The notes: generated by a model from the letters alone, not told the origin. Shown: positions 18,437 through 50,150, counted from the stretch's first letter. The stretch is DNA of 64,000 bases from Dehalococcoidia bacterium (GCA_025054935.1 JANWZD010000001.1:201008-265007); one strand, 5' to 3'. Translations and numbers: made by a program.

Positions 18437-18512
18437 CGTGTCTACGCCGAGAGCGGCTGGCGGACGGGAGCTCGCCGGTCTGCGCGACCTGGCGCGCCTC
18501 TCGTCGATCGGC

Positions 18513-32435: not shown

Positions 32436-33428
32436 TCACGGCGACGGATCGGCAGTCGGCGCCGCGAGCCCGAGACGGGTGAACCGCCACTGGCTGTAGA
32501 CAAAGAGCGCCCCGGCACCGACTGCGACGCCGAACCACAGTGTACACGCTCGAATCAGGATCGTGGCGGCGGCGGTAACGTCGCTCGGCGCCCCGACGAG
32601 CAGCCTGGTCAGGGCGGCGATCCCGCCTTCGGCGACCCCAAGCCCGCCCGGGGTGAGGAAGAGACCGCCTGCGAGCGATGAGACTGCGAGGATAAAACTT
32701 GCCTGGAGGAGGAGCATGCCGCTCGGCTCGAGGCCGAGGCCGGCGAGGACGAGAAAGAAGGCGACGCATTCGCCCGCCCAGGAGAGAACGCCAAGGGCGA
32801 TCCCGAACCCGAAGCTGGGACCGCGGAAGAGCACCGCGCTGCCCTCATAGAAATGCCGAAGGTGGTGCGCGCGGGTCCGGATGAGGGGGAGGCGCTCAGC
32901 AAGGGCAAGCACAGCCACAGCGAGCGGCGGATACTGGCTCAGGAGGAGCACCATCGCGGCCAAGAGGAGCGTGCCCACCATCACCTCAAACCCGAGCCCG
33001 AAAACAACGATCCCGGCGCTGGCGAGGATTAGAAGAGCAAGACCGTCAGTCAAGCGCTCCGCGATGATAATCGGCGCTGCCCGGCTGAACTGAATGCCGC
33101 TCTGCTGCTGGAGCAGGTAGCATTTCAGCCACTCGCCGACCTTTCCCGGGGTGATGGTCATGCTCAGGCCGCTGAAAAAGATAAGCAGGCTATCGAGCGG
33201 AGCGACCGTGCGCGCCCCGAGCAGCCGGATGTAGTAGTGCCATTTCCCGAAGCGGATGACATAGTTGGCCAGCGTTAGGCCGATGATGGCCGGCAGGAGC
33301 CCGACCTGGAAGCGACTGATTGCGGCGACAGTCTCAGACAGGTCGCCATAGACGAGGAGCGCAAGCAGCACGAGAACGCCAAAGGCGAGCGAGAGGAGAA
33401 TGCGCCCGCGGAAGCGTGCGAGGTTCAT
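32436..33428 (-). CDS. Lysylphosphatidylglycerol-synthase-TM-region-like (UPF0104, flippase-like) integral membrane protein
   Basis: Eight or more TM helices. Conserved N-terminal RFGKWHYYIRLLG-type motif of PF03706. Confidence 0.75.
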   Translation of the reverse strand: MNLARFRGRILLSLAFGVLVLLALLVYGDLSETVAAISRFQVGLLPAIIGLTLANYVIRFGKWHYYIRLLGARTVAPLDSLLIFFSGLSMTITPGKVGEWLKCYLLQQQSGIQFSRAAPIIIAERLTDGLALLILASAGIVVFGLGFEVMVGTLLLAAMVLLLSQYPPLAVAVLALAERLPLIRTRAHHLRHFYEGSAVLFRGPSFGFGIALGVLSWAGECVAFFLVLAGLGLEPSGMLLLQASFILAVSSLAGGLFLTPGGLGVAEGGIAALTRLLVGAPSDVTAAATILIRACTLWFGVAVGAGALFVYSQWRFTRLGLAAPTADPSP

Positions 33429-35792: not shown

Positions 35793-37655
35793 ATGCGCAC
35801 CCAACGGACTGATCTTCGCAATCTTGCGATCATCGCGCACGTCGACCATGGGAAGACGACCCTTGTCGACGCGATGCTGAAACAGAGCCGGGTCTTTCGC
35901 GAGCACCAGCAGGTGGGGAGCCTCATTCTCGACTCGCATGAGTTGGAGCGTGAGCGCGGCATCACCATCTTGGCCAAGAACACCGCAATCCGCTACCGGA
36001 ACGTCAAGATCAACATCATCGATACGCCCGGCCACGCTGACTTCGGCAGCGAAGTGGAACGAGTGCTGACGCTGGCCGACGGCTGTCTCCTGCTTGTCGA
36101 CGCGGTCGAAGGACCGATGCCGCAGACACGCTATGTGCTCAAGAAGGCCCTTGCGCTCGGGCTGCGCCCTATCGTGGGAATCAACAAAGTCGACCGGCCG
36201 CGCGCCCGTCCTCTCGAGGCGCTCGAAGCGACCCAAGACCTCTTCCTTGAAGTAGCGACCGACGCTGATCAGCTGGAGTTTCCCGTCGTCTATCTGGTCG
36301 CCAAAGAGGGGCGCGCCGGTGTTCAGCCCGACGCGCTCGCGCCGGACTTGACCCCCCTGTTCGAAACGATCCTCGCCGCCATCCCGTGCCCGACGGTTGA
36401 ACGGGATGCGCCCGTTCAAGCCCTGATCGCCGCGCTCGACTATGACCCGCACCTCGGCCGGATCGCTATCGGCCGCCTCATGCGCGGAACGCTTCGAACC
36501 GGCGCGCCGGTGGTGCGGGTGCGAAGCGATGGAGCCATCGCCCCCGAAAGCGGGCGCAAGGTCCGGCAGCTTCTCGTGTTCGAAGGGTTGAAACGGGTCG
36601 AGGTCACCGAGATCGCGGCTGGCGAGATCGTTGCGCTGGTCGGGCTCGACGACGTCGCGATCGGCGACACAATCGCCGACCCGGCATTCCCGGAGCCGCT
36701 GCCGGCGATCGCGGTCGATGAGCCGACAGTCCGGATCACGCTCGGCGTCAATACCTCGCCCTTCGCCGGCCGCGAGGGCAAATACCAGACCTCCCGCCAA
36801 CTGCGCGATCGGCTCGAGCGCGAACTGGAGACGAATCTCGGGCTGCGGGTAGAGGAGACCGAAAGTCCTGACCGCTTCCTCCTCAGCGGGCGGGGAGAGC
36901 TGCACCTCTCGATCCTGATCGAGACGATGCGTCGCGAGGGCTATGAGTTCGAAGTGTCGCGGCCGGAAGTGATCGTGAAGCGGGTCGATGGTCAGCTTCA
37001 GGAGCCGGTCGAAGAGCTCGTGATCGACACGACCGACGAGTACGTCGGCGCCGTCGCCGAACTTGTTGGGCCCCGCCTCGCGCGGCTCGTGAATATCCGC
37101 CACCGGGAGACAAGCGCCGGCACGACCGACGTTCGGCTCGTCTACCGCATTCCGACACGCGGGCTTATCGGGCTGCGCACCCAGCTGCTGACTGCTACCC
37201 GCGGCAACGCGACAATGAGCACTCTCTTTCTCGGCTATGAACCGTGGCAAGGCCCGCTCGCAGCGTCGCGCGGCGGCGCTCTGATCGCAACCGAGTCGGG
37301 CCGCGCCGTCGCCTACGGGCTGGCGAGCGCCCAAGAGCGGGGCCAGCTGTTCATCGAACCCGGGACCGAGGTGTATGAAGGGATGATTGTCGGCGTGGCG
37401 CCGCGGGCACTGGATATTCCGGTGAACGTCTGCCGTCAGAAGAAGGCGACGAACATTCGCTCCTCAACAGCAGAGATCGCCGTCAAGCTGACGCCGCCGC
37501 GCCGCCTCAGCCTCGAGGATGCGCTCGACTTTCTCGCCGCCGACGAACTGCTTGAGGTGACGCCAAAGAGCTTGCGTTTGCGGAAGCGGCTGCTCAGCGA
37601 GCACGAACGCGCTCGGGCGCGCAAGCAGGAAGCGAAGGCGGCTCTCGCGCTCTAG
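35793..37655 (+). CDS. typA: Translational GTPase TypA/BipA
   Basis: [36 protein letters not shown]. BipA-specific C-terminal domain. ATG 35793 gives an E. coli-like N-terminal length; GTG 35721 is an alternative. Confidence 0.9.
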
Positions 37656-37734
37656 CCGCTCGCGCTCTCCTCAGGCAGCGGCCGCTTGCCCGCCCGGCTG
37701 CAGGCGGGAGCAGGCACCCGGCGGAGACGGATGG

Positions 37735-40700
37735 CTAGTTCTCAATCACGATGCGGACGACTTTTCTGCCTCCTGTATCGACGACATAGAACCTGCCGTC
37801 GTCCGCCGCGACAATCTCAACCGGCAGCGTGAACAGCCCGGGCGCGCCGCCAACCTGCTGGACCCCTTCACGAACGTCGTAGCGCACGAGGCGGCCTCGG
37901 TCCGGGTCGGTGACCACCGGTCGGGAAGCAGCGTCGAGCACGAGGTGAGGTCCGTTCAGCGGGACAGACCAGTTGATCGGCCATTCCGCTTGATAGCGGC
38001 CGCCGGGGTCGAACCATTGGAGACGCTTGTTGCCGGTGTCGAGAACGAGGAGGTCGCCGGTCGGAAGCAGGGCAGCGTCGGTCGGTTCCAGCATCTCGCC
38101 CGGACCGGCGCCCTTTCTCCCGCCGTAGATGGTCAGCAGCTGGCCGTCGGAAGCGAACTTGAGCACGCGGTTTTGCCCCGTGTCGGAGATATAGAGATTG
38201 TCCGCCTCATCGATCGATAACCCGCGCGGCTTGTAGAAGTCGGACCGCGCTAACGGCAGCCGCCCCACAAACCGGCCGTCATCAAGGCGGTATTCGTGGA
38301 TCCCGGCTGTTGTCGCATCAAGGATGAACACTCGCCCCGATCGGGTGATGGCGATCCCGGTCGGCTCTTGGAGGCCGCCTGCTGTCGGCTCTGGACCCGC
38401 ATACGCGCGGATAAACTGCCCCTGGGGATCGAAGACGAGCACTCGCCGCGCTCCTCCATCAAGCACGTGCAGAGCGCCGGTAGGGTCAAGAGCAGCAGCG
38501 CGCGGCTCCTCAAGCCGTCCCTCAGGGGAAAGTCCGTAGGTCATCTCGACTCGAAGCGAGAGCGGCGGGCCGCTTGCGAAGCGCACGACGCCGCTCGGGA
38601 CGCGGACGGCGGCCTCTCGGGGAGCCGCAGGCACGGTCGGGCTCGGGGGAAGATCGCTCCCTTGGGGAGGCAGCAGCACCGCTGACGGGATCAGCTCGCG
38701 TCGTCGCCCTGGCGGCGTCCAGTAGAGGTAGATGCGCGAATAGGGATCGCGGTCGACGAACTTCAGCTGGAGATCGTGCAGCCCTGCCTCGAGCGGCACA
38801 TCTACCTCGTGGAGTTCGCTGCCGCGACGATTGTCGATAATCAGCCGGCCATTGAGAAAGAGTTGGGAAGTGCTGATCTGCTCTGTCCCAAAGCGGTAGA
38901 CACCTGGCTGGTCGATCCGGAGCGTGCCGCGCCACTCCACGCTGTAGGGGCGAGGAAGGGGCAGAATGTGGAAGTACATGCCGATCTGCGGATCGATCCG
39001 GAGAAGGGCGGGCTCTCCTGCCCACTCGGCGTTGGGATAATACGCGCCGAGCAGCCCTGTCGCCGCAACGGGAGGGAGATAGAAGAGGTTGGAGGGGATC
39101 GGGCTGAGCGTGCCGCCCGGCGGCTCCCAGGCCAATCGGACTGGTTGGCCTGGGCGGTCGGCACGAGCTCGGAGCAGGAGAGCGTGGTTGCCGGCTGCGA
39201 GGGTCAGCCGCGCTGCCTGGCCTCCGGTGAGCACGCGCGCGCCGTTGAGGAACAGCTCGGCACTGCTCGGTCCTTCAAGGAGCAGCCGGTAGCTGCCGTG
39301 CCGGGGAACGTGGAGCGTGCTCCGCCACTCCGCAAGCACCGGAACCGCGAGGCCGAGCGTGGCCGGGTCGATGTTGATCTCGGTCTCGCGGCGGCTGAGA
39401 TCGGGCCGCTCGCGTTCAGTTCCGTGCGCGAAGTAGCGCGCCTCAACGCCTTGGATGGCGACGATATCGGCCGGCGCGAGCTGAACAGCGTAGACGAGCG
39501 GAGGTCCGCCGAAGGGCGGACGCAGCTCCTCGACTTGGGCGCTGGGATAATAGAGCCGAAGCTGGCTGAACGCCGCCTGCTCGCTCGGGTCGAGGAAGAA
39601 GAAGGTCCGCGGAGCAACGGCGCGCACCGGTACGTCTGTTGCGGCGTTGAACAGGGCGCCTTCGGGCGCCTTCGGGGCGAGGAACCGGATTGTAGGCGGT
39701 CGGCCGGAGAAGAACTGGCTGAGGTAGACTGCATCGTTCGGAGAGAGCTCGCGAAGCCGCAGGGCAACGAGCGTTTCGGCCGCGGAATGGGCCGCAAAGG
39801 CGGCGAAGTCGTTTGCCCAGGCGACGAAGTAGCGATGATGGTTGACGACGGCGACGAAGAGGAGGGCGCTGCCGAGAGCGATGGTGCCCCCCGCTCGCCA
39901 AGCTCGCGACCATGCCGACGGGCCATGCCACCGCGCGGGGAGACGCGGAAACGTTCCAACCAGCAGCGCTCCGAGCGAGAGCGGGGTGCGGCTGCTGCGC
40001 GCGGCGGCCGCCGGGTTGCCGTACGTCCCCCAGGGGCTGCGCACCCAGCGGTCCCAGAGCGCGCCGAGCGGCAGCGCCGCAAAGATGAGCGTCGGCGGCA
40101 GCGCGGTCGATGCGCGCAGCGACTGCGGAGCTTCAAAGTTGAGGGAGAGGATCCCTCCAAGCAGCATCGTTCCCCACCAGATGATGAGGGTCGGCCCAGT
40201 CGGGCGGCGAAGCAGTCCCAACGTCAGCCCCACGCCGAGAACGAAGAGCGGCGCCAGAAGCGGGTCGAGCATCGGCCGGCCGGGAAGGTTATGGCGGCCA
40301 TTGCGGTCCCCCGCCACGTTAAACATCAGCAGGTGCTTCTCGATGTTGTCGAGCAGCGGGCCCCAGTGACCGGCTCGCTCCACTTCGGGCATCACGCTTG
40401 CGACCCCAAGCCTACGGTTGAACTCCTCGGGGAAGCGGACTGCAAACCATGCCAACGGCCCGGCCGCAATCAGCGCCGCGAGGGCGAGGAGGAGTGCGCC
40501 TTGGCTGATCGATGGCCAGAGCGATCGCCGCCAGAGCGCAGCCGCGAGGAGCAGAACGGCGAGGGTTACCGGGAAGATCCGTGACGGGAAGTAGAACTGG
40601 AGGTCGAACCCGACAAGAAGGCCGGCGATAACGAAGTCGCGCGGCCGGCGGTCTTGCAGTCCCCGCACGAGGAAAAACAGGACGAGCGTCTCGAGGGTAA

Positions 40701-41550
40701 TGCTGAAGATTGCGGTGCTGGTCGGAAAGCGGCTTAGGGTGACGTGCCAGCTGGAAACGGCGAGAAACCACGCCGCAATGAGCGCGATCCGCGGCGAGCC
40801 GAAGAGCCGGCGGGTGAGGAGGTAGATCGCGGGGATCCCCACGGTTCCCGCAATCGCTGTGGTCACCCGCAAGGCAAGAGGAGTCTCTCCGAAGACGAGC
40901 ATCGCGAGGGCGGCAAGGTAGATATTCGCCGCCGGGTTTTGGTTTTCGACGTAAAAAATCGGCCGGTATGTCGGCGAGGCGAGGATCTGCTGGGCGCCAA
41001 GGCCGACGACCGCCTCGTCGTACCACACTCCGAAGGGGAGCGTCGCTAGTTCTGCGGTACGGAACCAGAGCCCGACTGCGGTCGCGAGGGCGAGGATGGC
41101 CAGTTCAGCTCGGCCGATTGGCGGGCTGACCGGTGTCCGCGTGCCGGCCGGCAGCAGGAAGGCTGCGCCGAGTGTCATCGCAACAGCGGCGAGGTAGAGG
41201 AGCCAGGCGAGGTTTGGATTGCGGTCGCTTGAAAACAGCCAGAGGGAGCCTCCAAGGAAGAGGAAGGCAGCCGCGCCGGCAAAAGCTGACGGAAGCGCGG
41301 CCGTCAGCCGCGGCCAACGGCCTGTGCTCTCCCAGCCGTCAGGACCGGTGGCGGGCAGCGCGTACTGCGCCAGCGCGATTGCAATAAGGAACGCCGCCCC
41401 AGCAGCGATGAGGTCCGGCGGCTGGCTCAGGTAGCGAGCATTGGCGGCGACGGCGAGGACAATGGCGACGATCCCAGCGAGGAGGCGGCGCGGCTGCGAC
41501 GGGAAGAGGAGCCGGGTCGCCGAGCGGGAGGAGGGCGCCGCTGGTGCCAT
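37735..41550 (-). CDS. Large GT-C/GT39-like polytopic membrane glycosyltransferase homologue fused to tandem PA14 domains and a C-terminal NHL-repeat beta-propeller (1271 aa)
   Basis: N-terminal about 550 aa with more than 10 TM helices and a PMT/ArnT-like loop (GVWYDEAVVG). Middle: two PA14 signatures (GLLGAYYPNAEWAGEP...YRFGTEQISTSQLFLNGRLIID...LYW and an earlier degenerate copy). C-terminus: NHL repeats (YISDTGQNRVLKF, LVLDTGNKRLQWF, FYVVDTGGRKVVRI). Confidence 0.8.
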   Translation of the reverse strand: MAPAAPSSRSATRLLFPSQPRRLLAGIVAIVLAVAANARYLSQPPDLIAAGAAFLIAIALAQYALPATGPDGWESTGRWPRLTAALPSAFAGAAAFLFLGGSLWLFSSDRNPNLAWLLYLAAVAMTLGAAFLLPAGTRTPVSPPIGRAELAILALATAVGLWFRTAELATLPFGVWYDEAVVGLGAQQILASPTYRPIFYVENQNPAANIYLAALAMLVFGETPLALRVTTAIAGTVGIPAIYLLTRRLFGSPRIALIAAWFLAVSSWHVTLSRFPTSTAIFSITLETLVLFFLVRGLQDRRPRDFVIAGLLVGFDLQFYFPSRIFPVTLAVLLLAAALWRRSLWPSISQGALLLALAALIAAGPLAWFAVRFPEEFNRRLGVASVMPEVERAGHWGPLLDNIEKHLLMFNVAGDRNGRHNLPGRPMLDPLLAPLFVLGVGLTLGLLRRPTGPTLIIWWGTMLLGGILSLNFEAPQSLRASTALPPTLIFAALPLGALWDRWVRSPWGTYGNPAAAARSSRTPLSLGALLVGTFPRLPARWHGPSAWSRAWRAGGTIALGSALLFVAVVNHHRYFVAWANDFAAFAAHSAAETLVALRLRELSPNDAVYLSQFFSGRPPTIRFLAPKAPEGALFNAATDVPVRAVAPRTFFFLDPSEQAAFSQLRLYYPSAQVEELRPPFGGPPLVYAVQLAPADIVAIQGVEARYFAHGTERERPDLSRRETEINIDPATLGLAVPVLAEWRSTLHVPRHGSYRLLLEGPSSAELFLNGARVLTGGQAARLTLAAGNHALLLRARADRPGQPVRLAWEPPGGTLSPIPSNLFYLPPVAATGLLGAYYPNAEWAGEPALLRIDPQIGMYFHILPLPRPYSVEWRGTLRIDQPGVYRFGTEQISTSQLFLNGRLIIDNRRGSELHEVDVPLEAGLHDLQLKFVDRDPYSRIYLYWTPPGRRRELIPSAVLLPPQGSDLPPSPTVPAAPREAAVRVPSGVVRFASGPPLSLRVEMTYGLSPEGRLEEPRAAALDPTGALHVLDGGARRVLVFDPQGQFIRAYAGPEPTAGGLQEPTGIAITRSGRVFILDATTAGIHEYRLDDGRFVGRLPLARSDFYKPRGLSIDEADNLYISDTGQNRVLKFASDGQLLTIYGGRKGAGPGEMLEPTDAALLPTGDLLVLDTGNKRLQWFDPGGRYQAEWPINWSVPLNGPHLVLDAASRPVVTDPDRGRLVRYDVREGVQQVGGAPGLFTLPVEIVAADDGRFYVVDTGGRKVVRIVIEN

Positions 41551-41555
41551 CGCGG

Positions 41556-44500
41556 TTAGGGAAGCGGGTCAAATCGTTGGACGCGAGCGTTATTGCTGTC
41601 AACGACAAAGAGCGCGCCGTCCGGCCCGACGGCGACGCCAATGGGGAGATTGAAGCTCCCGGGCTCGGCGCCGAAGCGGCCCACGACATTGAGAAGCTGC
41701 CCTTCCGGCGAGAACCGGAGCAGCCGGTGGTTCTCGGGGTCGGAGACGATGACATTGCCGCTCGGGTCGACCGCGAGATACGGCTTGTTCAGAATGCCGG
41801 TGCTCTCCCAGCCGCGGATCGGGGTCGCCCCCAGGGGGCGCAGGCTCGCGTCGAACCGCTGGATCCGTCGGTTCCAAGTGTCGGCGACGAAGATCGTGCC
41901 ATCGGGAGCAACGGCAATCCCGACCGGTTCTTGGAACTGCCCGAGCATGGCGCCGGCGCCGCCGAAGGCGCCGAGAAACTGCCCGTCCGGCCGGAAGCGC
42001 TGTATCCGCTTGTTGCCGGTGTCGGTGACGAGCAGCGACCCGTCATCGAGGAAGGCGATCGCGCGCGGCCCGTAGAACCGGCCGGGATTTCCCGTCACCT
42101 GCCCGACCGACTCGCCGAACTCGCCAAACTTCCGCAGAAAGCGGAGATCGGCGGTGAACTGCTGGAGGCGATGGTTCCAGGTATCAGCGACCCAAACGGT
42201 GCCGTCAGGCGCGATGGCGATCCCCCACGGCTCGGTGAATTCACCATCAAGCGTTCCCCGGCGGCCGACCTGAGCGACCACGCGGCCGGAGGGATCGAAC
42301 TTCTGCACCCGATGGTTACCCGTATCGACGACGTAGATGAAGCCGTCTCCATCGACGGCGATGCCGCGGGGCTCGAGCAGTTGTCCTGCGCCGCTGCCGC
42401 GAGCGCCGAAGGCTGCGCTCGGCTGAAGAGGGGTAAGCGCGAGAGCGTATTCATCCGGTTGCGCCGGCCGCGCCGGGCCGGCGGTCAGCGGCTCGCCGGC
42501 GAGAAGGGAGCTCTTGACGAAGAAATAGCCGTCTTCCGAGCCGAGCGGCTTGCCCAGGTCGCGGTTGAAAAAGTACTGCCACAGCCGTTCTAGCCCGGTG
42601 GGACTGAGCGACGCCGCGACGGCATCGCTGAACCCAAACGCGCTGTTCGGGCGTCCCGGCTGAGCGGCCAAGGGGGAGCCCATCGCGGCCACCCACTCGA
42701 TAGCGCTCTTGTAATCCTCGGGGAACCACCAGCGATGACGGTAGCGCTGCCCGGGGGTGTAGTCGCTCAAATACGGGCGCATCCGCTCCACATTGTTGGC
42801 GTGGATAAGCACCACCTGCCCGGCGGGCGGAGCAGCAGCACCGCTGTAGGAGGGGTAGTCGACGTTCGGGTAGTGGCGGAGATACCACGCCCAGGGCCAA
42901 GTAAAGCCGCTGGTGCTGTCGACGGAAATGCGCAGCTCTTTTCCGCCTGTAGCCCGGAGAGAGAGCCGTTCGATTTCGCGGTACAGCCGAGGGATATCCG
43001 GGGAGGTTTGGGTGTAGATCAGCATCTCGGTGGCGATATCGCCGTGTTTGTAGGTGACAGTCCACGCAGCGCGCATCGTGAGGACGAGCAGGATCAGGAC
43101 GATCGCGCCGCTTGCGGCGCGGACGATCCCCGAGCCCCCGAACGGTGCCCCAACCTGAACAGCGGCCCCGACAAGGAGCAGCGCGATCCCGATCAGGGCG
43201 AGCGCTTGGCCGTTCCATCCCGGTGCGAGGTCGGCGGCGGCTTGAATCAGGCCGGCGGCCCCTGCCGCAAGAACGACCGCTGCCGCGATGAAGAGCGCAA
43301 CCACCGCGGCGGCCCGCCACGCCACGTCCGAGTTCCACCGCACCCCCTCAAGCCACCAGCCTGCTGAGCGACCCGCAAGCACGATCAGCGGCAGCGCGAC
43401 GTGGACAAGCAGCCACGGCATCTTCTCGCCTGCCCAGCTGTACGCAACGAGCGAGCCGACAAACCAGTAGAAGAGAAACGCAACGAATGGTGTCAGCCTC
43501 TCCCGGTGGCGAACGAGGGAGGCAATCCCTGCGCCGGCAAGGGCAAGCGGAAGGAATTCATAGAGCGGCAGCAGCAGGAGGTAGTAGTACCACGGCTGGT
43601 TGCCGCGCTGCACCCCATGCTGGTCGAGCCAGTAGGCGAGACTGCCCCAGACCCCAGACCCGATCCCCGGCAGATTGGTAAAGAAGGTGCTGTACAGGAG
43701 CACGAACACTGTCCAGAAGAGCGCCGCATATCCCGGCCAGACGGTTCGGTTCCACCACAAGCCGACGGCGGTCGAGATGACAAAACAGATGCCAGCGATC
43801 ACGAACTGCGAGAAGATCGCCCGCGTGGTCACCCAGGGCCCAAAAGCGATGACAGTCGGGTCTGTCGAGACGAGGGGTGTCAGCTTCGCAAAAGCGGCGA
43901 GCAGGGGCAGAGTGAGCGTGCCGAGCAGGATCAGGACGCCGAAGATCCTGTTGTCCCGCACCTCCTCCAAGCGAGGAAGGCGCCCTTTCCCAGCGAGATC
44001 CCACAGCCAATAGGCGGTGAAAAAGCTGCCGAACACCGCAACGGTAATGTAGTGGGTCTCCTTTGCCGAAAAGCCGAGCGCCATCATCAGCGTCCCGAGA
44101 TAGAGCCAGCGAACTTCCTTGCGCTCGATGTACCGCCAGGCCGCGAGTGCCAAGAGGAGGGTGAAGACCGCCATCAGGATGTCGTTGCGGGAAAAGCGGC
44201 TGTAGTACAGCATCGTCGGCGAGAAGGCGAGCAGCACCGCCGTGACGAGCGCGCCGCCGCGGCCGAGGAGGTCGCGCATGAAGAAGGGGAGGAGAACGAG
44301 GACGGTCCCAAAGGTCGCGTAGAGGAGGCGAGCCGTGACGTCGTTGTCGCCAAACAGAAAGTAGATCAGGGCGTTTACGTGAAACTGAAAGGGGCCGTGC
44401 ATCATCGGGTCGTGCTGGTAGCCCCGCCCGGCGTAGAGATACCAGCTATAGAGCACGTGCAAGCTCTCATCGTGATGCATCGCGCGCGTTCCGAGATCCC

Positions 44501-44660
44501 AGAACCGCATGATGGCTGCGACAAGGGTCAGCCCAGCGTAGGCCAGCGTCTCCCAAGTGACGCTGACGACGCTGAACACCCGGTCAACAGCGTCGCCGCG
44601 AGCGGAGAGCGAGCGGAGAGGGAGAAGAGCTCGAGTCATGCGCCTGCTCCTCGCTGGCAC
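41556..44660 (-). CDS. GT-C fold membrane protein (DE motif HHDESLH; TIGR03663-like by my recollection) with a C-terminal six-bladed NHL-repeat beta-propeller (1034 aa)
   Basis: N-terminal roughly 650 aa hydrophobic, with an extracytoplasmic first-loop DE motif typical of GT39/GT83. C-terminal NHL repeats (YVVDTGNHRVQKF, WVADTWNHRLQQF, LVTDTGNKRIQRF, FVADTWNRRIQRF, IVSDPENHRLLRF, FVVDSNNARVQRF). 5 nt gap to the downstream gene. Confidence 0.8.
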   Translation of the reverse strand: MPARSRRMTRALLPLRSLSARGDAVDRVFSVVSVTWETLAYAGLTLVAAIMRFWDLGTRAMHHDESLHVLYSWYLYAGRGYQHDPMMHGPFQFHVNALIYFLFGDNDVTARLLYATFGTVLVLLPFFMRDLLGRGGALVTAVLLAFSPTMLYYSRFSRNDILMAVFTLLLALAAWRYIERKEVRWLYLGTLMMALGFSAKETHYITVAVFGSFFTAYWLWDLAGKGRLPRLEEVRDNRIFGVLILLGTLTLPLLAAFAKLTPLVSTDPTVIAFGPWVTTRAIFSQFVIAGICFVISTAVGLWWNRTVWPGYAALFWTVFVLLYSTFFTNLPGIGSGVWGSLAYWLDQHGVQRGNQPWYYYLLLLPLYEFLPLALAGAGIASLVRHRERLTPFVAFLFYWFVGSLVAYSWAGEKMPWLLVHVALPLIVLAGRSAGWWLEGVRWNSDVAWRAAAVVALFIAAAVVLAAGAAGLIQAAADLAPGWNGQALALIGIALLLVGAAVQVGAPFGGSGIVRAASGAIVLILLVLTMRAAWTVTYKHGDIATEMLIYTQTSPDIPRLYREIERLSLRATGGKELRISVDSTSGFTWPWAWYLRHYPNVDYPSYSGAAAPPAGQVVLIHANNVERMRPYLSDYTPGQRYRHRWWFPEDYKSAIEWVAAMGSPLAAQPGRPNSAFGFSDAVAASLSPTGLERLWQYFFNRDLGKPLGSEDGYFFVKSSLLAGEPLTAGPARPAQPDEYALALTPLQPSAAFGARGSGAGQLLEPRGIAVDGDGFIYVVDTGNHRVQKFDPSGRVVAQVGRRGTLDGEFTEPWGIAIAPDGTVWVADTWNHRLQQFTADLRFLRKFGEFGESVGQVTGNPGRFYGPRAIAFLDDGSLLVTDTGNKRIQRFRPDGQFLGAFGGAGAMLGQFQEPVGIAVAPDGTIFVADTWNRRIQRFDASLRPLGATPIRGWESTGILNKPYLAVDPSGNVIVSDPENHRLLRFSPEGQLLNVVGRFGAEPGSFNLPIGVAVGPDGALFVVDSNNARVQRFDPLP

Positions 44661-44696
44661 GGGTGCGGCCAGCTCGCAGAAGAAGTCGAAGCGGTG

Positions 44697-46493
44697 TCAT
44701 CTCAGTATGACCAGAAGAGCTTCGCGGCGAAATCCCGTTTCGCCGGCCGTGCGCCAGACATACCAGCGCCAGAAGGAACGCGCCCCTTCTGGCGGACCGT
44801 AACTTCCAAGAGCGTAGACGCTGCGTATCCCGCTTGCTGCCGTCTCCGGGAGAGACGTGCCGACCGGCACAATCGCTGCATCGAGCCCTCCCGCGAGGTC
44901 AGCGCGCATGCGCATGCCCGGCTGATCGCGGAGGAGCCAGGCAAACGGAACCCGCAGCTCCGGGGCGACACCGTAGGCGATGATGCCTCCCCGCGCGGCG
45001 CGCAGTTCCGCAATCTGCTCGGGAAAGATCTGCGCGGCGGGGCCGGGAACGTCTGGCAGCACCCACTCCCCGGCGCTCGGTCGGGCGTTCAGCGCGAACG
45101 AGGCGTGGATCGACCCCATCAGCAGGAGCGCCGCTCCGGCAAGTGCCGTCACCGGCAGGGCGTTCCGGCCGAGGGAAGCAACGACGAGCACGCTGTAGCC
45201 GCCGGCGAGGGCAAGACTGAGAAAAACGGCCAGCCACTGCAGCGGCGTTCCCCCATCGCTGCGTGTCAGCACCGCCGATTGGATATAGGCGTAGACCAAG
45301 AGGGGGATTGCGCCGAGCAGCGCTGCTCCTCGCGCGAGGTCGTCGCGTCGCAGCGCGCAAAGTACATCCGCAAGCGCGGTGGCGGCGAGGAGGGCAAGGG
45401 GGAACGCGATCGCGGCGAGCGGTCCGACGAGGCGCTGTCCGCCGAGCACCGCGACGGCAAGCGCGACACCGCTCCAAAGAGCGAGAAAAGCGAGCGCCTG
45501 CCGGCTCCGCGGCTCGCGCGCTCTCCCGCTCAGCAGCCACAGGATGCCCGCAGTCCCCGCGCCGAGCGTGAGCGGGTCGTAGCTCACCAACGCCAGGGGC
45601 GGCAGGAGCGCGCTGCCGCCGGTCGTAAATTCGCGGACCCAGCCGTTGACCGCGGGCAGCGCGAGCCCGCTCGGGTCGAGGAAGAACCGGGTCGAGACGA
45701 GAAGGAACAACAGGAGCGCCGCAAGCACTGCACCGCCGAGCGAGGGGGTCTGCCCCCTCTCAGTGCGCCACCGCGTCAGGAGCGCCGTGAGCGGCGTCGA
45801 CGTCCCGAGCAGCCGGGCGATGACGAGAGCGACGGCAGCCGCGAGGAGGAGGGTGACCGCGCGAGGACCGCTCGTCAGCAGCATGGCGAAGGCGAGAATG
45901 GCCGTCGCGGCCCAGCCGGCCTGGCCATCCCGCTCGAAGCGCAGGAGACCAAGCAGCGCCACCACCGCCGCCAGAAGAGCGAGCGCGTCCGGTTCCCCGC
46001 GGCGCGAGATGGCGAGCGAGAAGGGACTGACGGCGAGCAAAAACGCGGCCAGAAGGGCGGCAAGCCGCCCGAGGAACGGTCGGAACGCGGGCATCAGGGC
46101 GACTGTCGCCGTTCCAGCGACGACCGACGGAAAGCGGGCAGCGAGATCTGAGGGAGTGGCAAGGAAGAAAACCAGCGCAGTGAGCAGGTCGGCGAGCGGC
46201 GCGCTGCTCCCCGCGGGGCGGCCGAGAGTGAGGTCAAGCGCTGCAAGCGCGGTCGCGCTTTCACCGAGCGAGAGCGGGTCGCTCGCGGCGAGCCCAAGCC
46301 GCAGTCCGGCAGCGACGACAATCGCCACGCCGTAGAGGAGCCATTCGAGCGGGACCGCAACCGCGGGGCGGTTGAGCATCGCCTCGAGAGCGGGAGGCGC
46401 GCTGCCGCTCGCGCTGCGGACGGAGGGCGACAGCTCTGCCACCGCGCTAGCGGGCTCGGAAAATCGTTGCGCTGCCATTCTGAAATGCCACAT
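44697..46493 (-). CDS. GT39-like polytopic membrane protein (putative glycosyltransferase), start uncertain
   Basis: Multiple TM helices and a D..E-containing first loop. ORF-track frame begins at TTG 46559, overlapping the YYY gene by 113 nt. ATG 46493 or 46478 avoids the overlap. Confidence 0.6.
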   Translation of the reverse strand: MWHFRMAAQRFSEPASAVAELSPSVRSASGSAPPALEAMLNRPAVAVPLEWLLYGVAIVVAAGLRLGLAASDPLSLGESATALAALDLTLGRPAGSSAPLADLLTALVFFLATPSDLAARFPSVVAGTATVALMPAFRPFLGRLAALLAAFLLAVSPFSLAISRRGEPDALALLAAVVALLGLLRFERDGQAGWAATAILAFAMLLTSGPRAVTLLLAAAVALVIARLLGTSTPLTALLTRWRTERGQTPSLGGAVLAALLLFLLVSTRFFLDPSGLALPAVNGWVREFTTGGSALLPPLALVSYDPLTLGAGTAGILWLLSGRAREPRSRQALAFLALWSGVALAVAVLGGQRLVGPLAAIAFPLALLAATALADVLCALRRDDLARGAALLGAIPLLVYAYIQSAVLTRSDGGTPLQWLAVFLSLALAGGYSVLVVASLGRNALPVTALAGAALLLMGSIHASFALNARPSAGEWVLPDVPGPAAQIFPEQIAELRAARGGIIAYGVAPELRVPFAWLLRDQPGMRMRADLAGGLDAAIVPVGTSLPETAASGIRSVYALGSYGPPEGARSFWRWYVWRTAGETGFRREALLVILR

Positions 46494-48786
46494 CAAGGTG
46501 CGACGCCAGCCGCTCTCCGACGCCTGCGCCGTATTTCTGCCTTTCGAGGCTGCCGACAAAGACGTACTCTGCGTTGTACTTCTTCAGGAGAGCAAGCAGT
46601 TCGTCGCGGCTTGCAGCAGTGTAGATGCGGTCGATCTCGGCATCGCGGCCGCGGAACGGCGCGTCGGACCCGCGCCACTGACGCTGATGGCCTGCCCAGC
46701 CGAGGATCGTCGGAATTCCGGTGCGCGCCGAGACCCGCCCAAACTCGGAGTACTGCCCCCCTGTCGCCTCAACGACGACGGCGCCTCGGCTCGCCTGAGC
46801 GGCCAGCCAGTCGATCGCTTCCGCTTCCCCGGGGGCAGCGGCGCGGGCGAACGCCAAGCCGTCGAGCGTCGGCTGCCCGGTGAAGCCGTCAGCCCTGCTC
46901 CACGTTGCAGCAAGCGTGTAATACATTCCCCCTGCAATCAGGATAAGACATGCCGCGACGATCACCCCGCGCTTCCACTGGCGCAGCGTTTGCGGCCAGA
47001 GCGAGACAAGAGCGTAGCCCCCTGCGACGGCGAGGAGGGTCCACGCTTGGAAATACAGCTTGAAGACCGTGTTCATTCGGTTCCCAAAAACGTCCAGAAT
47101 GAAAAAGTGTTCGGCCGCAAGATGCAAGAGGAAGGCGGTGCCGAGGAGCAGCGCTGCGAAGGCATCAGGGCGCGAGGGGGTCCGAAAGGCAACTAGGAGC
47201 GCAAGGGTGACGATGGCGGCAAGAGGAAGCGAGATCGCCGCCTTCGCCGGCAGAGAGTCGATCACGAGCGGCGCTGTCCCAGTGCGCACGGCGGCGGGCA
47301 GCGTCACCAGCAGCCAAGCAGCTGGGAGAGCGGCCCCGATGAGGAGCGCCGGCTGAAGCGCGCGGCGCCAGCCGGCATCGAGCTGCCCCAGCTGCCAGCC
47401 GACGAAGGCGATGGCCGGGAGAGCCAGGGGGCCCCAGAAGAGCGCCCAATGGTGCGGCTGGGTCGCGACTTGGACGACAGGGCGAATGCCCGACGCCTGT
47501 GACGAGAACGAAAGGTAGAACGGAAGGTAGAGAACGAGACTTGCTCCTCCAAGCGCGAGGGCAAACAGGCCGACATCGCGGATCAGCCGGCGGTCGAGAT
47601 GGCCAGCTTTGCGGTACGCGCTCAGGGCGACTGCCGCGACGACGAGCCCGCCGTAGGTCGGCAGGTCCCACGAGTTGAGAAAGCCGAGCGCGCCGACGCA
47701 GATCGGTAGTGCCGCTGCCTGCCAGGGGTGAGCGCGCGCCCACCGCATTCCCCAAGGATACGGAGAGTGAAAGGCAGCAGCAGCGATGCCGACAACGAGG
47801 AGGTTAAACGGCAGGGCCAGCACGTGCGGATGCAGATCGCCGAGCACGAAGCTGAAGATCGGGAACTCGTTGATGGTGTAGTCGATTCCTTGGCCGTCAC
47901 GGAACGTGTTGATGACCCGGGTCGCCTTCCACCACCACCAGTGTTCTGTTGGGGTCCAACTGGCGGCACGGTAGGGATGCGTCAGCCCGTCGATGGCAAG
48001 CGCGCTCCAGAATTCCGCGGTGCCCCAGCCCCGCGACCGCGCGAAATCGAGCAGGCCGACCAAGTTGCCCATCCCGACCAGCAGCACCGTGCCAAGCAGG
48101 CCGGCGAGCATGGTCTGCCGCGGCGTGGCCGCAGGCCAGCGCGCAATGACGAGCGACGAGACGAGCCCGAAAGCGGCGTGAGCGGAGAGCGCCATGACGA
48201 GCGCCAAGGCGAGATTGAACGCGACCGAGGCCGGGGTTGCGGCGAGGTGGGCGAGCATCCCAACGAGGACATAGCCGAAGTAGTAGTACGAGACGGTGTA
48301 GCCGGCAAGCCAGGGGTCAGGGGGAGGGAAGGCGTCGGCGCGCAGCACCGCATTGAGGAACAGCAGCTCCATCGGCTTCTCGGTGCCGGCAATCTCGGGA
48401 GCGTAGGCGCGGACACTTGCCCACCCGATGAAGATCACCGCAAAAAGCGCCTCGCCCGCCAGCAGCCGTTGCCAGTTGTCGCGCATCCAGGCAAGCTGCA
48501 GCGCTGCCTGCACGCGTCCGCCGAGCGCTGCCAGCCCGCCGAGAGCGAGGAGAGCCACGCCGAGCACCGCAGCCCCGCGGTTTGGCGGAAACAGAGAAAG
48601 CGAAGCGCCAATCCAGAAGAAGAAGCCCGTGAAAATGATGCCGAGCGGCCGCGCGAGGCTGAGGCCGCGGTCGGCAAGCTCCGGAAAGAGGCGCAGTGCC
48701 AAGGGCGCCGCCGCAAGCCCAATCAGGGTGGAGAGCAGCCACCAGCCGAGAACTGGCAGCGCGACTGCCTCGATCAGCGCGGACAT
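46447..48786 (-). CDS. DUF2298 / 'Chlor_Arch_YYY' family polytopic membrane protein
   Basis: The YTVSYYYFGY motif and the overall about 780 aa multi-TM layout match what I recall as the TIGR03662-type family, which is restricted to Chloroflexi and Archaea. C-terminal soluble domain (EATGGQYSEFGRVSARTGIPTILGW). 3 nt gap after ftsY. Confidence 0.8.
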   Translation of the reverse strand: MSALIEAVALPVLGWWLLSTLIGLAAAPLALRLFPELADRGLSLARPLGIIFTGFFFWIGASLSLFPPNRGAAVLGVALLALGGLAALGGRVQAALQLAWMRDNWQRLLAGEALFAVIFIGWASVRAYAPEIAGTEKPMELLFLNAVLRADAFPPPDPWLAGYTVSYYYFGYVLVGMLAHLAATPASVAFNLALALVMALSAHAAFGLVSSLVIARWPAATPRQTMLAGLLGTVLLVGMGNLVGLLDFARSRGWGTAEFWSALAIDGLTHPYRAASWTPTEHWWWWKATRVINTFRDGQGIDYTINEFPIFSFVLGDLHPHVLALPFNLLVVGIAAAAFHSPYPWGMRWARAHPWQAAALPICVGALGFLNSWDLPTYGGLVVAAVALSAYRKAGHLDRRLIRDVGLFALALGGASLVLYLPFYLSFSSQASGIRPVVQVATQPHHWALFWGPLALPAIAFVGWQLGQLDAGWRRALQPALLIGAALPAAWLLVTLPAAVRTGTAPLVIDSLPAKAAISLPLAAIVTLALLVAFRTPSRPDAFAALLLGTAFLLHLAAEHFFILDVFGNRMNTVFKLYFQAWTLLAVAGGYALVSLWPQTLRQWKRGVIVAACLILIAGGMYYTLAATWSRADGFTGQPTLDGLAFARAAAPGEAEAIDWLAAQASRGAVVVEATGGQYSEFGRVSARTGIPTILGWAGHQRQWRGSDAPFRGRDAEIDRIYTAASRDELLALLKKYNAEYVFVGSLERQKYGAGVGERLASHLDVAFQNGSATIFRAR

Positions 48787-48789
48787 GGG

Positions 48790-49749
48790 CTACTCGAACA
48801 ATTGCCGCACGTACTCGGCTGGGTCGAAGTCGACAAGATCGTCGAGCTGTTCCCCAGTCCCCAGATAGCGGATCGGCAGGCCCAGCTCATTGGCGATGGT
48901 GAAAGCGATCCCGCCCTTGGCAGTGCCATCGAGCTTTGTCAGCACGATCCCGTCGATATCGGCGGCTTGGGCGAACGCTTCCGTCTGCAGGATACCGTTC
49001 TGGCCGGTGGTGGCATCGATGACGAGCAGCACCTGATGGGGCGCGGTCGGGTCGACCTTAGCGATGACGCGCCGGATTTTCCGCAGTTCCTCCATCAAGT
49101 TCGTCTTCGCGTGCAGCCGGCCAGCGGTATCGATGATGACCACATCTGCTCCCCGGCTGCGTCCCGCTTCAACGGCGTCGTAGGCAACAGCGCCGGGGTC
49201 GGCGCCGGGCTGATGGGCCACAACTTGGACGCCGATCCGGTCCGCCCACACCTTCAGCTGCTCGATGGCGGCGGCACGGAAGGTATCTGCGGCGCCGATC
49301 AGTACCCGCTTCCCCTGCCGGTGCCAGCGGTGCGCAAGTTTGGCGATAGTCGTCGTTTTGCCAGTTCCATTGACGCCGACGATAAGGAGTACGAAGGGTC
49401 GGCCGTCGGGAAATCGCCGCGGTTCCCGCTCAAAGGGGCGGTCGTCCTCCTCCTCCACCTCGCGCAGCACGGCGCTCATCTCTTCTTGCAGCGCCTGCTT
49501 GGCGCGGTGCGCATCCGTAATCCCCTCCTCGCGGACACGCTCGCGGAGCCGGCTGAGGAGCTCTTCCGTCGTGCTCAGGCTGAGATCGGCGCTAATCAGC
49601 GTCTCTTCCAGCGCTTCCCAGAAAGCATCATCGATCTGACGGCGCTCAAAGACCGCCGCAACGCGCTGGAAGACCGCGTCTCGGGTTCGACGGAGGCCAA
49701 AGTCGATCTTGCGAAGGCGCTCGAACATCGCTCTCTCGAATGCTAGCAC
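48790..49749 (-). CDS. ftsY: Signal recognition particle receptor FtsY (short form)
   Basis: SRP54-type GTPase motifs: GVNGTGKTTT, DTAGR, TKLDG. GTG 49749 or ATG 49728 start. Confidence 0.9.
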   Translation of the reverse strand: MLAFERAMFERLRKIDFGLRRTRDAVFQRVAAVFERRQIDDAFWEALEETLISADLSLSTTEELLSRLRERVREEGITDAHRAKQALQEEMSAVLREVEEEDDRPFEREPRRFPDGRPFVLLIVGVNGTGKTTTIAKLAHRWHRQGKRVLIGAADTFRAAAIEQLKVWADRIGVQVVAHQPGADPGAVAYDAVEAGRSRGADVVIIDTAGRLHAKTNLMEELRKIRRVIAKVDPTAPHQVLLVIDATTGQNGILQTEAFAQAADIDGIVLTKLDGTAKGGIAFTIANELGLPIRYLGTGEQLDDLVDFDPAEYVRQLFE

Positions 49750-49790
49750 CGCTCTCGGCGCAGCACCATCGCGCTGCCGGCGTCATGTCG

Positions 49791-50150
49791 CTAGGGAAGA
49801 AAGAGGCGGACTGTTGTTCGCTGACCGTAGGCACGCTCAATATCGCGGCCGAATTCCCGGTCGGGAGCGTAGAGATCGATCCATCCCTCGCTGCCGAGAT
49901 TTCCTCGGTCGAGGCAGATCACCGGCCGGCCATCCTTGAAGACGGCGACCGTGCCGAGGGGGATGTCCCACGAACAGGCAGCCGCCCCGACAAACGGCGG
50001 GATGCCGGAAAAGGTAGCTCGCCCGGTCGGAAGATAGTAGCTGACGCGGACCTGCTTCGCGGGGACAAAAGTGACCGCGCCGGCGACCCCCGGATTTGTC
50101 CCGACGACCACGATCAGGGCGGCAGCGATTGCGCTGAAGCGAAGGATCAC
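49791..50150 (-). CDS. 3D (MltA-like) domain protein with an N-terminal signal anchor
   Basis: YLPTGRATFSGIPPFVGAAACSWDIPLGTVAVFKDGRPVICLDRGNLGSEGWIDLY fits the 3D-domain pattern (TASG...IPxGT...DxG..I.G..IDxY). Only start candidate in frame is GTG 50150 (VILRFSAIAAALIVVVG); poor SD spacing. Confidence 0.5.
   Translation of the reverse strand: MILRFSAIAAALIVVVGTNPGVAGAVTFVPAKQVRVSYYLPTGRATFSGIPPFVGAAACSWDIPLGTVAVFKDGRPVICLDRGNLGSEGWIDLYAPDREFGRDIERAYGQRTTVRLFLP

Follow-up and report, generated by a model that had tools for sequence, protein, structure and literature searches.

What does a protein of 1271 residues do that joins a polytopic membrane domain to two PA14 modules and an NHL beta-propeller, and is the combination peculiar to this genome? 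We asked this of a gene within a window (the whole stretch of DNA that was analysed) of 64,000 nucleotides from a Dehalococcoidia bacterium. The reading frame runs on the minus strand from an ATG to a stop codon, and its features are:

37735..41550, minus strand: whole ORF, predicted GT-C-fold membrane glycosyltransferase with an outer tail (two PA14 modules, NHL propeller); 1271 aa plus stop
41149..41493, minus strand: four extra N-terminal transmembrane helices before the GT-C core, residues ~20-134 (hydropathy, AF2, alignment)
39817..41112, minus strand: GT-C core of 11 transmembrane helices, residues ~147-578 (Pfam, AF2, Foldseek)
40882..41055, minus strand: first outer loop with the motif LPFGVWYDEA, residues 166-223 (conservation)
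40258..40437, minus strand: long outer loop EL4, residues 372-431 (family signature H406-LLMFN-x2-GD415-x-NGRH420-NLPG-x-PMLD)
39460..39813, minus strand: small alpha/beta outer domain past the last transmembrane helix, residues ~580-697 (AF2 secondary structure)
39073..39453, minus strand: PA14 module A, degenerate in this protein, residues ~700-826 (orthologue Pfam scores, hhalign)
38677..39063, minus strand: PA14 module B, canonical, residues ~830-958 (Pfam, RsgI3 match)
38566..38670, minus strand: proline-rich, low-confidence linker between module B and the propeller, residues ~961-995 (AF2 pLDDT)
37741..38559, minus strand: six-bladed NHL beta-propeller, residues ~998-1270 (Pfam, AF2 strands)

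The codon composition of the ORF is as in a real gene (GC3 0.78, GC2 0.52). NCBI contains an identical protein (P0001), to which the database already gives an automatic annotation, “glycosyltransferase family 39 protein”.

The membrane core

The protein has about 15 transmembrane helices, of which four precede the 11-helix core. In the AF2 model these extra helices occupy residues 20-40, 47-64, 86-108 and 112-132; they are kept across the family, with Q37 and W116 nearly invariant (alignment A1). A first-pass annotation of this DNA had described a polytopic region of 550 residues; the region is indeed polytopic, but it ends at ~570-578.

The membrane domain has the fold of the GT-C superfamily (GT-C_A type). 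Pfam PMT_2 matches residues 209-361 with 62.2 bits (cutoff 26.1), and the AF2 model of residues 1-700 reaches a pLDDT of 90.2 and a pTM of 0.91. In a Foldseek search of the PDB, the best 31 matches are all GT-C enzymes, led by ArnT (5f15, E 3.8e-10) and followed by STT3, EmbA/B/C, Pmt4, PglB and AftA, with GPI-MT-I also among them. For the membrane part, this search gave no match outside GT-C under E 0.05.

The label “GT39-like” in the first-pass annotation holds only loosely, for a PMT_2-type GT-C core, and membership of GT39 is not supported: the protein scores 26.9 bits with the PMT equivalog NF058602, whose cutoff is 800. The broad PMT_2 model alone matches, and neither PF02366 PMT nor PMT_4TMC is reported for the protein at E <= 0.01; some homologues give weak PF02366 matches. 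By these curated models the protein is not a true GT39/PMT enzyme, nor, with 15.3 bits for the ArnT equivalog PRK13279 (cutoff 567), a true ArnT (GT83). The protein is also not a member of Agl23 TIGR03663 (24.8 bits, cutoff 126.25).

ArnT (CAZy GT83), the undecaprenyl-phosphate-L-Ara4N:lipid A transferase, matches the same Pfam model, PMT_2, and is the best structural match, yet the TM scores are 0.40-0.55 (5ezm, TMt 0.55) and identity is 16%. In both proteins, loop 1 contains juxtamembrane helices and the last helix is followed by a small alpha/beta domain on the periplasmic side. The one in our protein can be compared with the soluble GT-C domains of AftD and ArnT; the alignment with ArnT spans ~613 columns. 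However, ArnT has neither the four extra N-terminal helices nor the 570-aa PA14/NHL extension. The GT39 PMTs (PMT1/2/4 and bacterial Pmt) share the GT-C fold and a D-E pair in the first outer loop with our protein, and Pmt4 is one of its structural matches. In contrast to them, it has no PMT_4TMC and no MIR; the accessory lectin-like MIR domain of eukaryotic PMTs is inserted in a loop, whereas the accessory domains here are C-terminal.

The putative active site involves two loops. D178 and E179 begin a juxtamembrane helix (177-191) after core TM1 (147-165), and P172, G174, W176, D178 and E179 are the same in all 40 homologues (31-75% identity). A catalytic Asp after TM1 is a general feature of GT-C enzymes (PMC11127046). 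D178/E179 provide the acidic residue in the first extracytoplasmic loop, just past TM1, that characterizes GT-C_A, and are the putative catalytic acids. They also form the loop-1 D-E motif of GT39/PMT enzymes, which is common to other GT-C families and hence not diagnostic. In EL4, twelve residues are invariant in all 40 homologues (H406, M409, F410, G414, D415, N417, G418, R419, H420, L422, P426 and L428). E473, P475, Q476 and R479 are likewise invariant in this set, down to 31% identity.

The outer tail

Topology was derived from hydropathy, loop charge and the AF2 helices. Loops assigned to the inside hold 17 K+R and 2 D+E, and those assigned to the outside hold 11 K+R (8 of them in EL4) and 16 D+E. 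Based on the positive-inside rule and the GT-C architecture, the N-terminus is predicted to be inside and the whole 700-aa tail to be outside the cell, where the invariant WYDE catalytic loop is also placed. The charge bias thus supports a location of the accessory modules like that in AftD/Emb-type tails, and agrees with the first-pass expectation that PA14 and NHL lie on the side of the catalytic loop. The cytoplasmic parts of the protein are short loops, with no cytoplasmic signalling domain.

Pfam PA14 matches module B at residues 830-955 with 55.4 bits (cutoff 24). Module A scores 19.7 bits (E 7.6e-4), which is under this cutoff, but the corresponding segment of orthologues reaches 43.7, 36.9 and 27.2 bits, and a profile-profile comparison (hhalign) of module A with module B gives a probability of 99.9% (E 2e-32). 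By these orthologue scores and this comparison, module A also belongs to the PA14 family. The canonical PA14 and the second, more degenerate copy noticed earlier are therefore both real, the degenerate copy being N-terminal to the canonical one. Residues Y859, H861, R867, P868 and Y869 of module B are invariant specifically in this family.

The best match for residues 700-960 in sequence and fold is the PA14 dyads of RsgI3 and RsgI4 (PDB 6QE7, 6QDI), which likewise place two consecutive modules on the outer side of the membrane. Modules A and B can both be aligned to the RsgI3 dyad, and module B matches 6qe7 in both sequence and fold. The RsgI3/RsgI4 dyads of cellulolytic clostridia bind pectin or xylan (PMC6852018). 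However, they are carried by a single-pass anti-sigma factor that signals to the cytoplasm, unlike the protein studied here, and they bind sugar via calcium coordinated by a DcisD motif. This motif, which together with CBL2 coordinates the sugar-binding calcium of lectin-type PA14 domains (Flo5, Epa1, RsgI), is absent from modules A and B. Where RsgI3 has D86-D87, module B has I892-S893 (most of the family: I-D) and module A has P761-S762 (the family: P-A). Given that DcisD is absent from both modules, the term “lectin-like” that had been applied to them is not established, and they are no more than putative carbohydrate binders.

The propeller matches Pfam NHL with 63.7 bits (cutoff 20). An AF2 model including the tail (pLDDT 89.3, pTM 0.75) has 24 strands, i.e., six blades, at residues 998-1270, and the propeller resembles the NHL domains of TRIM2, Thin, Brat and PknD (TMt 0.79-0.85). 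It also shares 32% identity, over 320 aa, with the propeller encoded by the upstream gene. The pLDDT falls below 50 at model residues 833-854, which correspond to residues 972-993 of the protein, in the linker. NHL propellers bind proteins or RNA more often than glycans. With Pfam and profile-profile comparison upholding the PA14 and NHL calls, and with the orthologue scores and AF2 models, the presence of a GT-C membrane domain, two PA14 modules and an NHL propeller in one protein is confirmed.

The two kinds of module differ in their constancy. The PA14 pair always accompanies the GT-C core of the family, even in forms of ~900 aa that have no NHL propeller (7/7 scanned). By contrast, the propeller is optional, and half of the core family can do without it.

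Candidate functions

We consider that the protein is probably, though by no means certainly, an extracytoplasmic GT-C glycosyltransferase with a polyprenyl-phosphate sugar as donor and a tail that holds the acceptor. Its catalytic activity, its lipid-linked donor, its kind of acceptor and the function of its tail are inferred, and the mechanism proposed here follows the established chemistry of the GT-C family. The polyprenyl-phosphate-linked sugar would be made in the cytoplasm, flipped outward and bound between the first outer loop and EL4. D178/E179 would activate a hydroxyl of the acceptor, and the sugar would be passed to this extracellular acceptor at the outer face of the cytoplasmic membrane. 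The 700-residue tail, in which a flexible linker joins the small alpha/beta domain and PA14 pair to the propeller, may hold or measure a polymeric acceptor, most likely a polysaccharide of the cell envelope or a surface-layer component that is heavily glycosylated.

The mycobacterial arabinofuranosyltransferase AftD joins a soluble domain and three CBMs to its GT-C core, and its acceptor is a complex glycan. In EmbC, the C-terminal domain is a lectin-like CBM (PMC3044687). AftD and the Emb proteins resemble our protein in layout: behind the GT-C core come a small soluble GT-C domain and, on the outside, several beta-sandwich modules. The carbohydrate-binding modules of AftD and EmbC are thought to hold the acceptor, and by analogy the tail could do so here. 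The first-pass suggestion of a GT-C enzyme tethered to its acceptor via lectin-like modules thus has a direct precedent in AftD and EmbC (PMC3044687). AftD and Emb enzymes use a lipid-phosphate sugar donor, as proposed for our protein, and each is one of several GT-C enzymes cooperating on one envelope polymer, as predicted for it. The Emb proteins are among the structural matches, yet share only 12-15% identity. Moreover, AftD and Emb proteins occur in a different phylum and have CBMs in place of the PA14 pair and NHL propeller. Unlike in AftD, the tail studied here is C-terminal, does not return into the membrane and has no known ACP partner.

A protein O-glycosyl (O-mannosyl) transferase in the PMT/TMTC sense seems unlikely, although it is the alternative that fares best. 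Such an enzyme would transfer sugar from polyprenyl phosphate to Ser/Thr of secreted or S-layer proteins, with the NHL propeller as a protein-binding platform. The MIR domain of PMTs and the TPR domain of TMTCs are platforms of this kind, and NHL propellers typically bind macromolecules. The PMT_2 match, the invariant loop-1 D-E pair, the weak PF02366 matches of some homologues and the NCBI name are also compatible with this function. However, the NF058602 score is far below its cutoff, the protein itself has neither PMT_4TMC nor PF02366, and the closest structure is that of ArnT and not of a PMT. In addition, the constant module is not the dispensable propeller but the PA14 pair, and PA14 pairs are known polysaccharide binders (PMC6852018).

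It is less likely still that the GT-C-like domain is not a transferase at all, but a translocase or scaffold for lipid-linked sugars, as proposed for Agl23, or a mere anchor for an extracellular PA14/NHL module that binds or senses, e.g., an adhesin or envelope organiser. Flippase activity has been reported for a GT-C-like protein of the Agl23 family (PMC11182771), RsgI anti-sigma factors have a similar PA14 pair as their sensor module, and the canonical sugar site is missing from the PA14 modules here. On the other hand, the whole family keeps unchanged the two elements that make up the active site in solved GT-C enzymes, namely the acidic pair behind TM1 and the EL4 motif; the score with the Agl23 model is well short of the cutoff; and the cytoplasmic side consists of short loops with no signalling domain.

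Distribution and gene array

The EL4 motif was used as a search pattern for loci of this family in GTDB species-representative genomes. At least 351 loci were found, and all 80 of those listed are in Chloroflexota. The listed relatives of the protein form >120 clusters at 90% identity. Therefore, what had been called an “unusual fusion” is the standard, database-annotated architecture of a large Chloroflexota family, and the protein is an ordinary member of this family, not a one-off. A literature search found no publication on the family. Although the ORF is unusually long and many relatives do not have the NHL part, a chimeric assembly or read-through joining separate GT-C, PA14 and NHL genes is refuted by full-length proteins of 1200-1300 aa in >120 independent clusters, on contigs of up to 14 Mb, by a codon GC pattern that is uniform across the whole ORF, by confident AF2 modelling of the domains within one chain and by an identical protein on two independent contigs.

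The gene starts 5 nt past the stop of the upstream gene (41556) and is preceded by three further genes:

41556..44660, minus strand: upstream partner, Agl23-like GT-C protein (TIGR03663) with a six-repeat NHL propeller, 1034 aa (profile scores)
44697..46559, minus strand: PMT_2-type GT-C paralogue, up to 620 aa (Pfam PMT_2, 47.3 bits)
46447..48786, minus strand: DUF2298 / chlor_Arch_YYY polytopic membrane protein, 779 aa (PF10060, 365 bits; TIGR03662, 554 bits)

The DUF2298 gene is the first of the array and directly follows ftsY. The ORF of the PMT_2 paralogue overlaps it by 112 nt, and the orthologue in locus L001 has 585 aa; the true start is probably further downstream. The upstream partner is a member of TIGR03663 (295.5 bits, cutoff 126) and scores 175 bits for NHL. 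Among 65 loci with at least 5 kb of upstream sequence, an Agl23-like GT-C protein is encoded within 8 kb in 48, the NHL propeller of this partner is present in 52, the DUF2298 gene in 30 and the PMT_2 paralogue in 33. The order DUF2298, PMT_2, Agl23-like with NHL, and the gene studied here is kept in L001, L003 and L086-L088; L004 has the same kinds of genes in a different arrangement. The gene is usually the last of the conserved array. In some lineages the array contains a PMT_2-DUF2298 fusion, and array genes are sometimes duplicated.

Pairs of Agl23/TIGR03663 and chlor_Arch_YYY (TIGR03662) proteins occur in Archaea and Chloroflexi. Both families are encoded directly upstream of our gene in an operon-like arrangement, and their proteins are GT-C-like and polytopic, as is ours. 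In the literature surveyed, no NHL tails are reported on the archaeal proteins, in contrast to the protein studied here. Agl23 translocates lipid-linked sugars and has been described not as a transferase but as flippase-associated (PMC11182771). No GT2-type polyprenyl-phosphate sugar synthase is encoded within the 64,000-nt window; a synthase like the one in L004 occurs in only 4 of 84 loci searched.

For the proposed glycosyltransferase, these neighbours suggest that it would come last among co-transcribed GT-C-type proteins that together build or decorate one envelope glycan, and that the Agl23-like partner may supply the flipped, lipid-linked sugar. More speculatively, and with considerable doubt, the array could be a dedicated extracytoplasmic assembly line, a counterpart of the mycobacterial Emb/Aft system, in which polyprenyl-phosphate sugars are assembled into an S-layer glycan or envelope polysaccharide not described so far. 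The related NHL propellers of adjacent enzymes would then form a shared extracellular platform, and the PA14 pair would bind the growing polymer via a non-canonical, calcium-independent site.

Soils, sediments, wastewater and hot springs all harbour abundant Chloroflexota, but the chemistry and biosynthesis of their envelopes are poorly known. The four to five GT-C enzymes, whose genes are tightly clustered across the phylum and of which two carry related NHL propellers and one a constant PA14 pair, make up a candidate machine for making an envelope glycan or glycosylating the S-layer. It would extend the design of a GT-C core with acceptor-binding modules, as in AftD, Emb, PMT and TMTC, to a new combination of modules, and it connects the co-occurrence of chlor_Arch_YYY and Agl23-like genes, unexplained in both Archaea and Chloroflexi, with a larger array.

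Domain architecture and distribution of the fusion

The target ORF runs for 1271 codons from ATG to stop (37735-41550, minus strand), and its codon-position GC (GC1 0.71, GC2 0.52, GC3 0.78) is like that of other genes of this 65% GC window. Pfam assigns residues 209-361 to PMT_2 (62.2 bits; cutoff 26.1) and residues 830-955 to PA14 (55.4 bits; cutoff 24), and there is an NHL match (63.7 bits; cutoff 20). A second PA14 domain, module A (residues ~700-826), lies N-terminal to this canonical copy (module B, ~830-958). Scanned alone, module A of the target scores 19.7 bits (E 7.6e-4), which is under the cutoff, and the same segment in three homologues scores 43.7, 36.9 and 27.2 bits. A profile-profile comparison over 40 homologues matches the two modules with 99.9% probability (E 2e-32). 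Pfam, the homologue scans and the profile-profile comparison thus uphold all four domains named in the first-pass annotation (its GT39-like membrane domain as PMT_2, two PA14 and NHL). The degenerate PA14 copy that it described is real, but precedes the canonical copy rather than following it.

A protein identical to the target is present in NCBI and is encoded on two independent contigs. Given this identity and the same architecture in many clusters and loci, an assembly or fusion artefact is ruled out.

The fusion had been called unusual, but it is common in Chloroflexota. Among the matches listed in a protein search, more than 120 clusters of 1200-1300 aa combine PMT_2, PA14 and NHL, and a scan covering a single genome for each GTDB species located relatives at 351 loci. 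The best 80 of these 351 loci are all from Chloroflexota (Anaerolineae, Caldilineaceae and Dehalococcoidia), and the Caldilineaceae among them include MAGs assigned to Caldilinea aerophila and Litorilinea aerophila.

With residues 140-700 (the GT-C core) as query, an exhaustive HMMER search yielded 704 50%-identity clusters at E <= 1e-30. Lengths in the best 150 of these clusters form two main groups, one of at least 1150 aa (59 clusters) and one of 830-999 aa (55 clusters). In the shorter group, all seven scanned members have PMT_2 and PA14 without NHL, and three of the seven have two PA14 stretches. Since PA14 is kept in all seven, the PA14 pair is the constant partner of this GT-C core, and the propeller is an optional addition. 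Variants of the family include P0131 (1436 aa), which has an N-terminal cytoplasmic double zinc ribbon, and P0243 (1874 aa), which has three PMT_2 stretches; both were retrieved in searches. One homologue locus, L087, has a tandem second copy of the target (13863-17252, 1129 aa).

Fold, predicted topology and conserved motifs

We ran AlphaFold2 twice from a 64-sequence alignment. The model of residues 140-1271 has a pLDDT of 89.3 and a pTM of 0.75, and that of residues 1-700 has values of 90.2 and 0.91. By fold, the top PDB match of the membrane part is ArnT (5f15, E 3.8e-10; 5ezm, TMt 0.55), followed by STT3/OST, EmbA/B/C, Pmt4, PglB, AftA and GPI-MT-I, and all fold matches below E 0.05 are GT-C glycosyltransferases. 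A sequence search of the PDB with the N-terminal 600 aa found no meaningful match; the GT-C relatives come from the fold search only. For the tail, fold matches include the tandem PA14 dyad of RsgI3, a clostridial anti-sigma factor (6qe7, E 2.6e-16), and the six-bladed NHL propellers of TRIM2, Thin, Brat and PknD (TMt 0.79-0.85). The model has 24 strands at residues 998-1270, corresponding to six propeller blades, and the proline-rich linker at 972-993 has a pLDDT below 50.

Hydropathy and the modelled helices give 15 transmembrane helices, of which four are extra N-terminal helices (20-134) and 11 form the GT-C core (147-578). The first outer loop (166-223) contains two short juxtamembrane helices, 177-191 and 208-220. 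We rejected a transmembrane assignment for the latter, which has only 13 residues and would set the long outer loop EL4 (372-431) and the tail opposite the catalytic loop. By analogy to ArnT, we treat this helix as the second juxtamembrane one. Loops assigned to the cytoplasm carry 17 K+R and 2 D+E, and those assigned to the outside carry 11 K+R (8 within the 60-residue EL4) and 16 D+E. This clear positive-inside pattern, together with hydropathy and the modelled helices, points to a topology with the N-terminus inside and with the catalytic loop, EL4 and the whole tail (570-1271) outside. A cytoplasmic PA14/NHL tail, which the first-pass annotation had named as incompatible with its proposal, is at odds with this derived topology.

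We scored motif conservation in an alignment of 40 homologues (31-75% identity). The motif LPFGVWYDEA in the first outer loop has invariant P172, G174, W176, D178 and E179. The invariant motifs also include an EL4 signature, H406-LLMFN-x2-G414-D415-x-N417-G418-R419-H420-NLPG-x-PMLD, and a third outer-loop motif consisting of E473, P475, Q476 and R479. Solved GT-C structures place the proposed catalytic Asp directly after the first transmembrane helix (PMC11127046). D178 occupies exactly this position, at the start of helix 177-191. We read this as good, though indirect, evidence that the active site is functional, and infer activity from it. Invariant His and Arg residues in the NHL propeller are limited to H1202 and R1109, and we therefore set aside a PAL-like catalytic propeller.

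The DcisD calcium/sugar site is missing from both PA14 modules. At the positions aligned to D86-D87 of RsgI3, module B has I892-S893 (I-D across the family) and module A has P761-S762 (P-A across the family). Any sugar binding by the PA14 pair would therefore need another surface. We speculate that the family-specific invariant residues Y859, H861, R867, P868 and Y869 could provide it.

The GT-C gene array

The target gene belongs to a four-gene GT-C array after ftsY, all on the minus strand with minimal gaps. The other three genes are:

46447-48786, minus strand, DUF2298/chlor_Arch_YYY gene (TIGR03662, 554 bits)
44697-46559, minus strand, PMT_2 paralogue, up to 620 aa
41556-44660, minus strand, Agl23-like GT-C gene, 1034 aa (TIGR03663, 295.5 bits; cutoff 126)

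The target starts 5 nt past the stop of the 1034-aa gene, which is itself a GT-C and NHL fusion with a clean six-repeat propeller. The propellers of the two genes share 32% identity over 320 residues; their membrane domains can hardly be aligned. The real start of the PMT_2 paralogue is probably further downstream, because the TTG start of the 620-aa ORF overlaps the DUF2298 gene by 112 nt; the orthologue in homologue locus L001 has 585 aa. Downstream of the target lies typA/bipA, in convergent orientation. A promoter and terminator scan of 37400-50200 found nothing over shuffled expectation.

In precomputed annotations, the array order of the window recurs in L001 (68% identity), L003, L086, L087 and L088 (34-36%). 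L004 (31%) has the same kinds of genes in another arrangement, L002 (35%) has none of them, and some loci have an additional PMT_2-DUF2298 fusion of ~1650 aa. We also searched 84 loci by tblastn with window proteins, a few of these loci being the same contig twice (e.g., L001/L005 and L002/L050).

Neighbours within 8 kb of target homologues, counted on the 65 loci whose upstream sequence spans 5 kb or more
Agl23-like membrane domain: 48 of 65
NHL propeller of the Agl23-like gene: 52 of 65
DUF2298: 30 of 65
PMT_2 paralogue: 33 of 65

Most of these neighbours lie directly upstream of the target homologue on the same strand. The Agl23-like gene with its propeller and the target are a conserved pair across Chloroflexota.

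No GT2-type polyprenyl-phosphate sugar synthase was found in the window, the remainder of which is housekeeping. In L004, a GT2 and methyltransferase fusion gene (8386-9942) lies immediately upstream of the target homologue and could encode a lipid-phosphate sugar synthase; genes like it are near the target at only 4 of 84 loci. A stand-alone LPG_synthase_TM gene (PF03706, a flippase-like membrane domain; 32436-33428, minus strand) lies ~4 kb beyond the array and could be a lipid-linked sugar flippase. In L088, a distant locus, a gene close to the array (17674-18684) has the same Pfam domain.

AT skew on the plus strand is strongly positive (0.18-0.27) at 40001-48000 and about 0 elsewhere. This region coincides with the minus-strand membrane-protein genes, and the skew probably reflects the codon composition of genes for hydrophobic proteins. 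Elsewhere in the window, we noticed the following, the last four lacking Pfam matches at the thresholds used and having gene-like codon GC:

5017-5889, minus strand, D12-class N6-adenine DNA methyltransferase gene (PF02086, 193 bits)
52745-53773, minus strand, 342-aa ORF with a sub-threshold GH130 (mannoside phosphorylase) match (21.2 bits; cutoff 26), adjoining a luciferase-like monooxygenase gene
14930-17278, plus strand, 782 aa
26136-27317, minus strand, 393 aa
60909-61820, minus strand, 303 aa
31024-31848, minus strand, 274 aa

Relation to known families and proposed activity

The target belongs to the GT-C superfamily, as it has both the GT-C fold and an acidic residue following TM1. Membership in GT39/PMT is not demonstrable (NF058602, 26.9 bits against a cutoff of 800; no PF02366 or PMT_4TMC match), and the broad PMT_2 model alone accounts for its database name, "glycosyltransferase family 39 protein". 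The scores also place the target outside GT83/ArnT (15.3 bits; cutoff 567) and Agl23 (24.8 bits; cutoff 126). The closest analogue in design is mycobacterial AftD, whose GT-C core is joined by a small soluble GT-C domain and by three carbohydrate-binding modules; its authors explain the modules by a complex glycan acceptor. A second is EmbC, with its lectin-like C-terminal domain (PMC3044687). Despite the AftD/EmbC-like design, identity to Emb proteins is only 12-15%.

Fold, motifs and predicted topology suggest that the target acts as a GT-C transferase on the extracytoplasmic side, where it would move a sugar from polyprenyl phosphate in the outer leaflet to an external acceptor. This acceptor may be a polymeric envelope glycan or glycoconjugate. 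We favour such an acceptor because the PA14 pair always accompanies this GT-C core and resembles polysaccharide-sensing dyads (PMC6852018), and because the gene lies within a multi-GT-C array. The tail might serve as a holder or ruler for the acceptor. Given that an archaeal Agl23 translocates lipid-linked sugars in vitro (PMC11182771), the Agl23-like neighbour could deliver the flipped lipid-linked sugar.

A protein acceptor, in a PMT/TMTC-like reading, is a live alternative to the envelope glycan, as NHL propellers usually bind proteins or RNA. A non-catalytic role as a flippase, scaffold, adhesin or sensor is less likely, since the active-site motifs are invariant and the target has no cytoplasmic output domain.

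Literature searches found no paper describing this architecture (GT-C, PA14 and NHL in Chloroflexota). Those combining PA14, GT39 and Chloroflexi returned only irrelevant Pseudomonas PA14 papers, and those on DUF2298/TIGR0366x only plant AGL23 papers besides the Agl23 flippase work. The first-pass annotation had read the fusion as suggesting processive or substrate-anchored glycosylation; its observation is confirmed and this interpretation is supported in part. The target is a typical representative of a large Chloroflexota family, automatically annotated and experimentally uncharacterised. A GT-C core with acceptor-binding modules is a known principle, of which the combination of a PA14 pair with NHL and the conserved multi-GT-C array are a new form. 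The family would be of greater interest should the array turn out to make a distinctive envelope glycan of Chloroflexota.
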